Shown: one piece after another, positions 1 to 4,313 of the stretch
How positions within the stretch are numbered: the first letter of the stretch is position 1
How the letters are laid out: each line of letters starts with the position of its first letter
IMG/VR virus record: IMGVR_UViG_2671180637_000018
DNA length: 4,313 bases
From: a virus
Taxonomy: Duplodnaviria; Heunggongvirae; Uroviricota; Caudoviricetes
Reading direction: 5' to 3' (one strand)
Position numbers and translations under genes: made by a program
The notes under the pieces: generated by a model
Told to the model about the DNA's origin: nothing
Databases searched by the model: none
Seen by the model: only the letters and a program-made list of their open reading frames with translations

Positions 1-968
1 CCCAGCGTCACGTTATTCGTGTCATACCAGCTGGAGAACTTCTCCAGAATATTAATAAGCGGATTATCCTTCTGCCCCTGCGGCGCACCGGCGATATATT
101 CAAAGGCCTTTTCGGTATCAAGGTCACTTTCAATCGTCGCTGCATACATGGCTTTCACAATGGCCGACTGAAGCTGTGTTGCCTGCAGGGAATCCAGCAT
201 CTTCAGCCGTTCCATGACGCTGTAAAACTGATTAGCCCCACGGGTCTGCCCGTCCTCCACCGGCTCGAAAATATGCAGCATGGCCGGACGCCCGGTGGGT
301 AGTTCACGCGGGATCCGTTCCCATCGTCCACTCCCGGAGAACGGAAAATCATCCTCACAGATATGGTACGCAACGGCACGGCCATATCGATCGACCTCCA
401 CCCCGGCCCGCAGAAAACGGTTCCCCATACCGTGTCCTGGCGTGTCCACCCGTTTCGGACTCACGGCTTTAAAACGCGTACGGAATAACTGCGTGGTTTC
501 CGTATCCCAGACCGGCTGCACAAAGATTTCGCCGTTAAACGCATGAACGCCCACACCTTCACGGATAAATTCCGTGAACGTGCGTTTTCCTTCCACGTCG
601 ATCTCGCCAGACATCCCTTCGGCGTATTCCGACCAGGCCGCCTCCACCTCATCGACAAAGCTTTTTGCTGCGGTCTCCCGCATCCCCAGCCAGCGCCAGT
701 TCGGACGGTAGCTGATAAGAAACATATGCCCGACAATGTGATCCTTATGCAGGGCCACCGCATTGGCCGCTATTCCGTTATTGCGCACCAGATCATCTGC
801 CCGGGCATTCCCCAGACGCAACGCGGGCAGCAGGGCCGCATCGGCACTCTGCGCCGGTGGCAACCACTCCGCCATTTGCCCGCCAAATCCTGCACCGCCC
901 CCGTTGTAGCTGAGACTCTCACGAAGCGGAACGCCGTTCACATCAATCAGGACAGGCGTTCGTTTCAT
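1..968 (-). CDS. B: portal protein (lambda gpB-like), partial: N-terminal ~322 codons, C-terminal part beyond window start
   Basis: Minus-strand frame open from ATG at 968..966 to position 1 (not in the ORF track because it runs off the edge). Manual translation MKRTPVLIDVNGVPLRESLSYNGGGAGFGGQ...NARADDLVRNNG...HIFEPVEDGQTRGANQFYSVMERLKMLDSLQATQLQSAIVKAMYAATIESDLDT matches lambda gpB blocks as recalled. GAGG Shine-Dalgarno just upstream; ATG overlaps the gpW stop (ATGA), as at the lambda W/B junction. Confidence 0.85.
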   Translation of the reverse strand, partial: MKRTPVLIDVNGVPLRESLSYNGGGAGFGGQMAEWLPPAQSADAALLPALRLGNARADDLVRNNGIAANAVALHKDHIVGHMFLISYRPNWRWLGMRETAAKSFVDEVEAAWSEYAEGMSGEIDVEGKRTFTEFIREGVGVHAFNGEIFVQPVWDTETTQLFRTRFKAVSPKRVDTPGHGMGNRFLRAGVEVDRYGRAVAYHICEDDFPFSGSGRWERIPRELPTGRPAMLHIFEPVEDGQTRGANQFYSVMERLKMLDSLQATQLQSAIVKAMYAATIESDLDTEKAFEYIAGAPQGQKDNPLINILEKFSSWYDTNNVTL

Positions 969-1171
969 AACCTCACTCCCAGCGGACGACGGCGACGCCG
1001 GGTTGTCCCCAGTACCGACTCCGCATCATTGATCGCCCGGTTAAGCTCATCCAGAGAAGCCGCCGTATATTCAATTCTGCGACCATCTTTCTGGACAGAC
1101 ACCACCCGTTTACCGGTTAATAAATCAAGGCGCGCCTGACGCAGCGCCTGCAGTTCAGCGACTGTAACCAT
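965..1171 (-). CDS. W: head completion / head-tail joining protein (lambda gpW-like)
   Basis: 68-aa [71 protein letters not shown]; same length as lambda gpW with the conserved TGKRV.VQKDGRR core. Strong GGAGGA Shine-Dalgarno 4 nt upstream of the ATG; sits between terminase and portal as in lambda. Confidence 0.85.
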   Translation of the reverse strand: MVTVAELQALRQARLDLLTGKRVVSVQKDGRRIEYTAASLDELNRAINDAESVLGTTRRRRRPLGVRL

Positions 1172-3083
1172 TCACTCCTCCGGACAGCTTCGCTGCCAGT
1201 TCTTTCAGGGTTGGCCGGGTCGTCTCTTCTTCCCGGGATTTTGCCAGTACAGCCAGATCAAGCTGCCAGCGTTGCACGGACACACGTAATGCCGCGTAGG
1301 CATACACCAGGCAGTCCAGCGCTTCGTTACGCCGCTTTTTGTTATCCCACAGCAGACGCATCTTTCCTTTTTCCCACTTCTCCACCAGCTCTTCCGCCAC
1401 CAGTTGCTGCGCCTCTGTCTGCGAAAAAATCTCCGGATCATCAGGAAAACGGATGGCATACGACGTGGCTTCATCCGCAGGCGAGGGATCGGCTTTCATA
1501 CGGGCATAGAGAATTTCTTTTGCGGTGTCCGTTCCCACTTCACACAGATACACGCCCCGCTGATTGCGGGTTTTTGGCATGGTGATCACCGGCTTGCCAT
1601 AGACAGATGCGCCTTTTACCGGCAGCACCCGGAAAACACCGTGTTTTTTTGATCTCTGATAAACAATTTCACCATCGATCCCCCCGGTGTCCCAGCAGAC
1701 ACGGGAAATAGTCATTTCGGTGCCATCCGCATGGCGGTATTTTTTGTTGATCGCCGCATCCACACGTAACAGCGTCTCTTCCTCATCAGGACGCCCCATA
1801 ATGATGATTTTATCCACCAGAAAGGCTTCCTCTCCCGGAGCCCATCCCCAGACATACATCTCAAAACGGTTTCGCTGCGAGTCAATGCCCGCCGTCAGAT
1901 AAACCACCCGGGCAGGCACCGCCGCCGTGTAACGCACCACCTTATCCATCAGTACCTGGTGATCGAGTTTTTCGCCCACGGCCTCTTCCCAGGTCTCGCC
2001 CAGCGTGGTGTTCACAAAGGTTTTCAGGCCGTTGGGATCTTTCAGTGCATCCAGCCAGTCATAGACAATCTGTACCCAGGTGGTGAACGGACTGTACGCC
2101 GTCCAGATATGGAAAGTGATGGAGCGCGGCGGCGGAATTTCATTACCCGCAGCGCTGAAAAACGTCAGGCCGTCACGGGTCCACATGCCCGTGTTTTCAC
2201 AGATCCACCGCCCGTTGTTCTGGTCCAGTTCAGACTGATGGATCACGCAGCCATGATGTTCACAGAGGTAGAAAACGCTTTCGGGACTGTCCTTCTCCCA
2301 TTTAAGCCCAAAAGGCGTGGACTCATCGCCAAATTTCAGATACTGCGCCTCCCCACAGTGCGGGCAGGGCACATAAAAACGCATGAAATGCGCCGACTCG
2401 TTGGCCGCTTTTTCGATCTGGCAGGAGCCTTTGATTTTAGGAGTCGAGCCGCGAATGGATTTGGGCCATACAGAGCCCTCAATACGTTTATCCCCCAGCA
2501 GGGTTGGCGAACCCTCTTTTTCAACATCCGGTTCGAACGAGGAAAGCTCGTCATAACAGACCACATCCACGGATTTTTCACGGTAGTTTTTTGCTGCCGC
2601 TCCCCCCAGACACCAGAAACCCACACCGGAGGAAAAACGCTTCAGGGTGAGCGTATTATCGCGGTGTTTTCTTCCGAACCATGGAGCCAGCTCCAGCAAC
2701 GCAGGAACCTCCCTTATCGTTGGCTCAACATGAGATTTCATAAAATCTTCAGCAGCTGAGTCCGTGGGCTGAAAAAGAAGGCTGTTGCGTGATTTATGCT
2801 CAATAAAATAAGCCTCCACTCCCAGCAACATCTTTGTATAACCAACACGGGCAGATTTAATCAGGTTAACAGTGCGAATCAAATCGTTGCCCATACAGTT
2901 CATGATGCCAACCTGAAACGGCAGTGTTTCCCACCGCCCCGGGGTATAAGACGACTCTTTAGGAAGGTAATAATGTTTATTGGCCCACTGAACTGTCGTC
3001 AGTGGAACAGGAATAATGAGAGATAAAAGCCCTGTTGCTATCGCACCGGCTGCATTAGCTGCCTTCTGCGCGTCTGAAATCAT
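1155..3083 (-). CDS. A: terminase large subunit (lambda gpA-like)
   Basis: 656-aa track ORF (1155..3125) collinear with lambda gpA over its full length: [103 protein letters not shown]. Start placed at the second in-frame ATG (3083..3081, MISDAQK...), which aligns with the lambda gpA N-terminus, has a GGTGGA-like SD upstream and gives the lambda-like 29-nt overlap with the Nu1 3' end; the ATG at 3125 has no SD. Confidence 0.9.
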
Positions 3084-3603
3084 CGATCCACCCGCCCACG
3101 TTTTCACCGGCCTTAGCTGAAACATTGGAGGCTTTCGCGATTTCAGTTTTCACCACATCAAGGTGTGATGGTGAAATGTCCGGATATTTACGCTGTAATG
3201 TCAACGGCACACGCACAAGTATCCCCGAAATCTCCTGTGCCACACGTTGCAGAATGAAGGTAAACAGTTCAGTTTCCAGCACTACTCCGTCTTCACGGGC
3301 ATTTTTCAGTTCCTGCGCATCTGCCTGCGCTTTTGTGAGCCGGTAGCGTTCATAGTCAATGGTGCCGGGTTGTAAATCTGACTCCGCTGCCGCACGCAAA
3401 TCGTCCAGTTCTTTGCGGAGCTTTTCGTTTTCGATATCAGTTTCCCTCTGCGCATACCACTGAATTGCCATGGCAGTATCAAATACAGATTCAATGCCCT
3501 TACTACCTTTGGAGGCGCAAGGGAGTCCCTGAGACTGCCAGCGTTCAATCGTCCGCGGGTCCACGTTGAAAATTTCGGCAAGCCTCTTTTTATTAACCTT
3601 CAT
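3055..3603 (-). CDS. Nu1: terminase small subunit (lambda gpNu1-like), DNA-recognition subunit
   Basis: 182-aa [31 protein letters not shown]...[29 protein letters not shown] matches lambda Nu1 (MEVNKKQLADIF...RTIQNWQEQGMP...[28 protein letters not shown]) as recalled. Lies immediately downstream of the cos site and overlaps the gpA start, as in lambda. Confidence 0.9.
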
Positions 3604-3630
3604 GAAAACAACCCATTATCAAATACAAGG

Positions 3631-3642
3631 CCCGACATGAAA
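3631..3642 (-). promoter_or_regulatory. R1-like Nu1 binding site (cccgacatgaaa; minus-strand core CATGTCGG)
   Basis: Forms a perfect 11-bp inverted repeat with 3670..3680 (ccgacatgaaa / tttcatgtcgg); closest repeat to the Nu1 start (about 29 bp), the position of lambda R1. Confidence 0.6.
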
Positions 3643-3669
3643 ACGCCAGAAAAAGGCATTTTCGGACAC

Positions 3670-3680
3670 TTTCATGTCGG
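3670..3680 (+). promoter_or_regulatory. R2-like Nu1 binding site, inverted relative to R1 and R3 (tttcatgtcgg)
   Basis: Inverted partner of 3632..3642; orientation opposite to the other two copies, as for lambda R2. Confidence 0.6.
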
Positions 3681-3689
3681 ACCTTTACG

Positions 3690-3726
3690 GATGCAATATT
3701 AAAAAAAACAAAAAGTTATATTCGAG
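3690..3726. promoter_or_regulatory. A/T-tract region, candidate IHF (I1-like) bending site between R2 and R3
   Basis: gatgcaatattaaaaaaaacaaaaagttatattcg; positional equivalent of lambda I1 (AACTTAATGTTTTTATTTAAAATA) and similar on the minus strand (ATATAACTTTTTGTTTTTTTTAATATTGC). No exact IHF consensus verified. Confidence 0.4.
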
Positions 3727-3731
3727 AAGTA

Positions 3732-3739
3732 CCGACACG
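3732..3739 (-). promoter_or_regulatory. R3-like Nu1 binding site (ccgacacg; minus-strand CGTGTCGG)
   Basis: Third copy of the core with one mismatch, same orientation as R1, at the position corresponding to lambda R3. Confidence 0.45.
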
Positions 3740-3779
3740 ATTTTCCCTGAAAAATTTTCATAAATAGTGAAAAACCGCG

Positions 3780-3791: not shown

Positions 3792-3835
3792 CGTAACGGT
3801 CTGGATCACCGGAAAGGACCCGCCAACGACTTTCG
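3792..3835 (-). other. cosQ-containing segment (right-end side of cos)
   Basis: Plus strand cgtaacggtctggatcaccggaaaggacccg closely resembles the reverse complement of the lambda right end (GGGTCCTTTCCGGTGATCCGACAGGTTACG, from memory). Exact cosQ bounds not determinable here. Confidence 0.55.
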
Positions 3836-4014: not shown

Positions 4015-4266
4015 ATGAGTCAACATCAATATTATCCACAGCTGAAATGGAAGCCTGCTGAATATGAATCTCTGATGCTTTTAGATCAAACTACGCTCTC
4101 TGGTTTTACTCCGATCATTACCATTCCAGACATAGACTGGGATTATGAAAACGAATGCTACAAGAAGAGTTTGAGTTCTTACTTATCTGACTTCGGTATT
4201 AACCTTGCGGCATCCTGGAAAGCCAATCTGATCTTACCCAGCAATAGTGGACACGCGGCTAAGTGA
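4015..4266 (+). CDS. hypothetical small protein (83 aa), first gene of AT-rich accessory cassette; family not recognised
   Basis: ORF MSQHQYYPQLKWKPAEYESLMLLDQTTLSGFTPIITIPDIDWDYENECYKK... with a strong SD at optimal spacing. AT-rich codon usage unlike the phage structural genes; plus strand, opposite to the late operon. Ends at TGA 4264..4266; the next ATG (4294) is in the same frame. Confidence 0.55.
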   Translation: MSQHQYYPQLKWKPAEYESLMLLDQTTLSGFTPIITIPDIDWDYENECYKKSLSSYLSDFGINLAASWKANLILPSNSGHAAK

Positions 4267-4281
4267 GTAAACTCTCAGTCA

Positions 4282-4287
4282 GAGGTG
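4282..4287 (+). promoter_or_regulatory. Shine-Dalgarno (GAGGTG) for downstream gene
   Basis: gaggtg 6 nt upstream of ATG at 4294. Confidence 0.4.
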
Positions 4288-4293
4288 ACTCAC

Positions 4294-4313
4294 ATGACAA
4301 AAACAGTATCAAC
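4294..4313 (+). CDS. hypothetical protein, 5' end only (MTKTVS...), continues beyond window
   Basis: ATG with a good SD 27 nt after the stop of the upstream ORF, same strand and same frame; only 6 codons visible. Confidence 0.35.

Follow-up and report, generated by a model that had tools for sequence, protein, structure and literature searches.

The cos region of a phage 21-like prophage: putative terminase recognition sites and their relation to those of lambda

The cosB regions and small terminase subunits (TerS) of phages lambda and 21 have been the standard model of how cos phages choose their own DNA since the 1980s. In helper-packaging experiments each of the two terminases favours its own DNA over that of the other phage by a factor of more than 1000 (PMC4669245). 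This discrimination occurs despite identical cosQ and cosN sequences in the two phages, cross-packaging yields being about 1e-4 per cell and self-packaging yields about 1.2-2.5 (PMC4669245 Table 6). The difference in specificity has been ascribed to the recognition helix of TerS and to the R sites of cosB (Feiss et al., PMC4669245). According to that paper, the determinants map to bp 56 and 59 of R3 and to residues 20 and 24 of TerS, and the GC pair that the phage 21 R3 has at bp 56 clashes with Glu24 of the lambda TerS. The cosB of phage 21 has the arrangement R3-I1-R2-R1, with R2 inverted, and a model has been put forward whereby bending by IHF at I1 allows a dimer of TerS DNA-binding domains to dock on R3 and R2, TerL being thereby anchored and cosN accurately nicked (PMC9026076). 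Phage N15, which belongs to the same cos family and has a closely related cosN, possesses instead a simple cosB, where TerS anchors TerL from a single site at the R3 position (PMC4669245).

The DNA analysed here is a stretch of 4313 bases, referred to as the window throughout. A preliminary description, made from the bare sequence, had drawn attention to three short repeats next to a lambda-like cosN, whose core differed from that of the lambda R sites. We compared this region with those of lambda, of phage 21 and of a set of relatives.

Gene content and identity with phage 21

The window is oriented in reverse with respect to the conventional lambda map. Pfam matches to Phage_Nu1, to the GpA ATPase and nuclease, and to gpW reproduce the lambda gene order, and the adjacent Nu1-family terS and gpA-family terL genes point away from cos, as is characteristic of a lambda-like cos region. 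The start and end of terL agree with the annotation in both OL657228.1 and NZ_CP062910.1; by analogy, its product would be the endonuclease/ATPase that TerS sets on cosN. Between the terS start codon (3601-3603) and cosN lies a spacer of 176 bases (3604-3779) that is A+T-rich, with 36% G+C vs 54% in the genes. The features are as follows.

Below 968, minus strand: start of the portal gene, visible in part only
965-1171, minus strand: gpW gene (Pfam gpW)
1155-3083, minus strand: terL, phage 21 gene 2 and gpA homologue (Pfam GpA_ATPase and GpA_nuclease, PF05876 and PF20454)
3055-3603, minus strand: terS, phage 21 gene 1 and Nu1 homologue (Pfam Phage_Nu1, PF07471, E=3e-81)
3442-3603, minus strand: winged-helix DNA-binding domain of TerS (residues 1-54), containing the recognition helix
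3606-3620, plus strand: tentative I0, IHF-like, overlapping the terS ribosome-binding region (M81255.1 'IO site', 338-352)
3626-3642, minus strand: cosB R1, TTTCATGTCGGGCCTTG (OL657228.1 protein_bind 150-166), core at 3632-3639
3670-3685, plus strand: cosB R2, TTTCATGTCGGACCTT as read on the plus strand of the window (OL657228.1 protein_bind 107-122), core at 3673-3680
3706-3718, plus strand: I1, annotated IHF site in the R3-R2 interval (OL657228.1 74-86; also in M81255.1)
3727-3742, minus strand: cosB R3, AATCGTGTCGGTACTT (OL657228.1 protein_bind 50-65; R3 of M81255.1), core CGTGTCGG at 3732-3739
3748-3762, minus strand: I2 segment in the cosN-R3 interval, IHF-like as annotated (M81255.1 196-210, corresponding to phage bp 30-44)
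3780-3791, minus strand: cosN, cohesive-end sequence GGGCGGCGACCT, nicked by TerL (OL657228.1 nicking subsite 1-12)
3815-3821, minus strand: cosQ, GGGTCCT, packaging-termination subsite (OL657228.1 cosQ at 42902-42908)

When the cos region was submitted to megablast, the phage collection yielded Escherichia phage 21 at 100% identity (X02501.1, OL657228.1). Compared base by base with OL657228.1, the window has zero differences from base 1 of the cohesive end to base 671, a stretch that takes in cosN, I2, R3, I1, R2, R1, the ribosome-binding site and codons 1-161 of terS. Phage positions p were converted to window positions as 3792 - p, those of M81255.1 by way of a 166-base offset. The complete genome OL657228.1 annotates cosN at 1-12, R3 at 50-65, I1 at 74-86, R2 at 107-122 and R1 at 150-166, and the older head-operon record M81255.1 bears the same R boxes together with I2, I0 and an R4 box. 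The annotated R3, I1, R2 and R1 of phage 21 coincide exactly with the repeats singled out in the preliminary description. Its coordinates, 3631-3739, correctly enclose these repeats but fall short of the annotated phage 21 R sites, which extend to 3626-3742.

At the protein level, TerS is identical to phage 21 gp1 at 181 of 182 residues, the sole substitution being S162 here where phage 21 has A, and over residues 1-54 it matches chain A of PDB entry 7LWR ('Terminase, small subunit') without a difference. A literature search with the PDB codes 7LWR, 7LXS and 7LW0 found no structure paper. Left of cos, identity to phage 21 is about 97.8%. The window departs from that phage through changes dispersed over terL, W and portal and at a few bases of the cosQ-cosN interval; right of cosQ the DNA is unrelated, comprising different accessory cargo and an IS3 end. 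In complete E. coli genomes this terS-cos stretch is found in chromosomal prophages.

It is thus very nearly certain, judging from sequence comparison, that 3604-3779 is the cosB, the site recognised for the start of DNA packaging, in a prophage of the phage 21 type, and that its R sites are suited to recognition by a 21-type terminase and incompatible with that of lambda. The phage 21 cosB (OL657228.1, M81255.1, X02501.1; terminase gp1/gp2) has the same sequence, so that this cosB is already known base for base, with nothing new in it. The novelty implied in the preliminary description is absent because the window cosB is that of phage 21 itself.

The R sites and their comparison with lambda

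The pattern CRTGTCGG occurs exactly three times among the 4313 bases of the window: at 3632-3639 (minus strand), 3673-3680 (plus) and 3732-3739 (minus). In dinucleotide shuffles of the whole window 0.28 matches are expected. In phage orientation the cores run +,-,+ and, counted from the cohesive end, their 5' bases occupy bp 53, 119 and 153; R2 is accordingly inverted relative to R3 and R1, in agreement with the OL657228.1 annotation. Detection of these sites requires the degenerate pattern C(A/G)TGTCGG. An exact 7-mer de novo search for the +,-,+ layout finds the lambda CGTTTCC class, as well as a CAGATCC class (see below), but misses the sites of the window, since the base that is A in R2 and R1 is G in R3.

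Three 8-mers in a spacer rich in A+T might be suspected of recurring by chance, given that the motif is short and that one of the 200 whole-window shuffles likewise reached three matches. Yet all three copies fall within 108 bases, inside the 176-base gap between cosN and terS, and the similarity is not limited to the core but extends over 16 bases, of which R2 and R1 share 15 and R3 shares 11 with either of them. Furthermore, the sites lie within 2 bp of the positions of the lambda R sites and the motif is kept in 58 related loci (see below). Conservation and position between them effectively refute a chance origin, the probability of which we consider negligible, and leave the assignment of the repeats as R sites in place.

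The remaining cos subsites resemble those of both phages. The 12 bases of cosN are all identical to bases 1-12 of lambda and of phage 21, and the cosQ 7-mer is identical in, and equally distant from cosN in, the right ends of the two. Conservation of cosN and the adjacent bases, as initially described, is borne out by bases 13-49 too, 30 of these 37 being the same as in lambda. In the cosQ-cosN interval (3792-3830, compared with L086 and L002) the window reads GGTGATCCAGACCGTTACG, the phage 21 records GTCGATCCAACAGGTTACG and lambda GGTGATCCGACAGGTTACG; the few spacer substitutions with respect to phage 21 are probably without consequence. For I1, AAACAAAAAGTTA at 3706-3718 fits the consensus WATCAANNNNTTR with one mismatch, but three such matches occur in the window vs 3.4 expected. 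The assignment of I1 is made because of its position between R3 and R2, the consensus count alone not being above chance. The tentative I0 includes a match to the IHF consensus at 3606-3618, again with one mismatch and again with a window-wide match count no better than chance.

Phage lambda, with its gpNu1/gpA terminase, has the same cosQ and cosN as the window and R3-I1-R2-R1 in the same order and orientation. The spacing is almost the same, with cores starting at bp 53, 120 and 155 in lambda vs 53, 119 and 153 in the window and terS starting at 191 vs 189 bases from cos. The lambda R3-I1-R2-R1 arrangement attributed to the repeats on first inspection therefore holds for order, orientation and spacing alike. 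The TerL proteins are homologous and the lambda TerS (Nu1) is 52% identical to that of the window. The differences reside in the R core, CGTTTCC in lambda and C(A/G)TGTCGG in the window, and in the recognition helix of TerS, which in the window has E20 and S24 where the lambda helix, RTIQNWQEQG, has Q20 and E24. The E20 and S24 of the window are those of phage 21 gp1 and of 7LWR_A.

The lambda core had been given in the preliminary description as CGTTTCC-type, and lambda does carry CGTTTCC at all three of its sites, so that the cores indeed differ. By direct reading, neither CGTTTCC nor GGAAACG is found in 3604-3779. Aligned over 16 bases, R3 of the window, AATCGTGTCGGTACTT, and R3 of lambda, AGGCGTTTCCGTTCTT, are identical at 11 positions and differ at bp 51, 52, 56, 59 and 62. 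Within the core itself the window departs from lambda at only two of these positions, as T56G and C59G, the rest being changes in the flanks. The 'different core' of the preliminary description therefore amounts to exactly the published discriminating base pairs. Its proposals that the winged-helix sequence at the N-terminus of Nu1 differs from lambda, and that the DNA-recognition specificity has changed, agree with the TerS comparison and with the identity of the window to phage 21, for which the discrimination is published (PMC4669245). The natural switch in terminase/cosB specificity that it envisaged is likewise real, although, having been established for the phage 21 sequence, it is not new. 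The window cosB would accordingly be expected to be usable by a 21-type terminase and closed to that of lambda, as has been published for the identical cosB of phage 21.

Transferred to the window, the packaging mechanism would take the following course. By analogy, winged-helix dimers of TerS (gp1) would insert their recognition helices, which carry E20 and S24, in the major groove at the R sites, R3 acting as the critical TerS site and R2 and R1 adding efficiency. IHF bound at I1 would bend the DNA and so present R3 and the inverted R2 to a single TerS dimer, a geometry of bending and dimer docking that has been modelled for lambda and that we infer for phage 21. From the R sites, TerS would anchor TerL (gp2) on cosN at a distance of about 47 bp, and staggered nicks made there by TerL would yield the 12-nt cohesive end. 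Packaging would then proceed toward terS and terL, that is, toward lower window coordinates. G56 and G59, in combination with TerS residues 20 and 24, would render the site usable by a 21-type and unusable by a lambda terminase, and the reverse would apply to the lambda site. In this scheme the sequence identity, the anatomy and the co-variation presented next were computed here, whereas binding, discrimination and the assignment of contacts come from the literature.

Co-variation of the R core with the recognition helix

The relation between R core and recognition helix was assessed in 80 IMG/VR loci encoding TerS relatives of 65-100% identity, using the 12 residues that span the helix (16-27) and the 200 bases upstream of terS. 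The helix of the window type is accompanied by CRTGTCGG sites in 58 of 58 loci. In 48 of the 58 all three copies are exact and lie 136(+), 77(-) and 36(+) bases ahead of the ATG; in the remainder R1 or R2 is one base off. CGTTTCC, sought in the same 58 loci, gave 0 matches. The helix RTITAWQSQG is found with CAGATCC in 17 of 17 loci, here at 129(+), 69(-) and 29(+), and RTIQNWQEQG with CGTTTCC in lambda, 2G7b and YDC107_1. Mixed combinations of helix and core were absent from 75 IMG/VR loci and the reference phages. The co-variation of R site and Nu1 recognition helix that the preliminary description had suggested looking for is therefore strict, with three classes that do not mix. Such a pattern is what co-evolution of protein and DNA would predict, and the tabulated classes independently confirm, by sequence alone, a code linking recognition helix and R core.

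Within the phage 21 class, loci of the L010 and L068 types retain an exact R3 core, with R1 and/or R2 drifted (e.g. CACGTCGG, CGTGTCGT or GACACG...). Drift of R1 and R2 alongside an exact R3 fits a critical R3 with accessory R2 and R1.

The inverted pair formed by R1 and R2 raises the question of whether these sequences are mainly an RNA hairpin or terminator, or an operator for terS, rather than binding sites for terminase. They do lie in a 27-nt inverted repeat that is 81% complementary (arms 3627-3653 and 3659-3685), and a consensus scan places a hairpin resembling a terminator on the minus strand at 3650-3631. However, this match is weak (three such hairpins are found vs 0.6 expected) and its stem is G+C-poor, and a hairpin leaves unexplained the third copy, R3, which lies 90 bases off in direct orientation. 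In addition, lambda and the CAGATCC class keep the three-site layout with unrelated cores that track the TerS helix, and published genetics assign the R sites to TerS (PMC4669245). We consider a primary role as hairpin or operator to be very improbable, and terminase binding the far better account of the pair. The terminator-like hairpins predicted over R1 and cosN were rejected as by-products of, respectively, the R1/R2 inverted pair and the dyad symmetry of cosN.

The CAGATCC/RTITAWQSQG class is represented by IMG/VR contigs L051-L065, L071 and L072, for example the prophage contig L052. It shares with the window the tripartite +,-,+ layout but differs in having a third R core and a third helix. 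Over its whole length its TerS shares about 82% identity with phage 21 gp1, the C-terminal part being close, and a chain of PDB entry 7LXS has a similar helix, RTVTAWQSQG. A search of the phage collection for cultured phages with a TerS of this class revealed none above 82% identity, the best hits being to phage 21. On these sequences, the class presumably represents a third packaging specificity.

One member of the class, L063, has at 919-1002 a single hybrid R site, the left half of which, ATCAGATCC, is R3-like and the right half, TTTCTGGTTCC, R1-like. It is without I1 or R2, and 81 bp separate base 1 of cos from the terS ATG. The sequence is consistent with a deletion through an unequal crossover of R3 with R1, a route that has been proposed for the origin of the simple cosB of N15 (PMC4669245). 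N15 itself has one R site, no I1, terS at bp 89 and a TerS with an unrelated N-terminus, in contrast to the complex tripartite cosB of the window. The possibility that the L063 cosB is N15-like in sequence was rejected, as the TerS N-terminus and left end of N15 are unrelated and the likeness is architectural only. Taken together, a third specificity carried on a 21-like TerS body, with the R3/R1 fusion of L063 as a snapshot of how the N15 type arose, is a speculative reading that we would put forward with considerable doubt.

The DNA right of cos

Similarity to phage 21 ends near 3830, and homology to uninterrupted prophages ends at 4228. The left end of an IS3 element occupies 4229-4313, beginning TGATCTTACCCAGCAATAGTGGACACGCGG... 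and leading into the start of the transposase orfA, ATGACAAAAACAGTATCAAC. These last 85 bases match thousands of copies annotated 'IS3-like element IS3 family transposase' in E. coli genomes; the exact IS3 junction is absent from the complete E. coli genomes in the collection.

An insertion of this kind invites the view that the cosB is a fossil, the prophage being defective and its 21-type R sites no longer serving packaging in the host. The IS3 end interrupts the gene beside cos at 4229, which represents some insertional decay, and only 4.3 kb of the element are visible. On the other hand, the open reading frames of terS, terL, gpW and the visible part of portal are intact, with about 98% identity to phage 21, cos and cosB are unchanged with respect to that viable phage, and IS3 has struck an accessory gene rather than a morphogenesis gene. 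Even in a defective prophage, moreover, the cos could be used by a 21-type helper terminase. We therefore regard the fossil interpretation as unlikely and prefer to see in the region a cosB that would still serve a 21-type terminase.

As regards discovery, the locus has little to offer: GenBank already lists its sites, the DNA-binding domain has a deposited structure, and genetic work has mapped the discriminating contacts. Its value is one of annotation, in that the window can be assigned to a prophage of the phage 21 type whose cos is intact. This predicts that 21-type helper terminases can mobilise the prophage and that lambda-type terminases cannot.

In the low-G+C stretch at 4015-4228 lie the opening 70-odd codons of a gene for a 'beta family protein' (PF14350), which IS3 cuts at 4229. 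The intact protein in NZ_CP062910.1 has 355 amino acids and matches the PADLOC model PD-Lambda-2_C (3e-32), and the convergent gene next to it codes for a sce7726 family protein with a match to the PADLOC model 'cll' (4e-31). In L084, an uninterrupted version, the intact pair lies at 5016-6083 and 6025-6645. The pair is located in the interval from cos to the lysis genes, where accessory genes typically reside, and is a candidate for anti-phage defence cargo, inactivated in the window by IS3.
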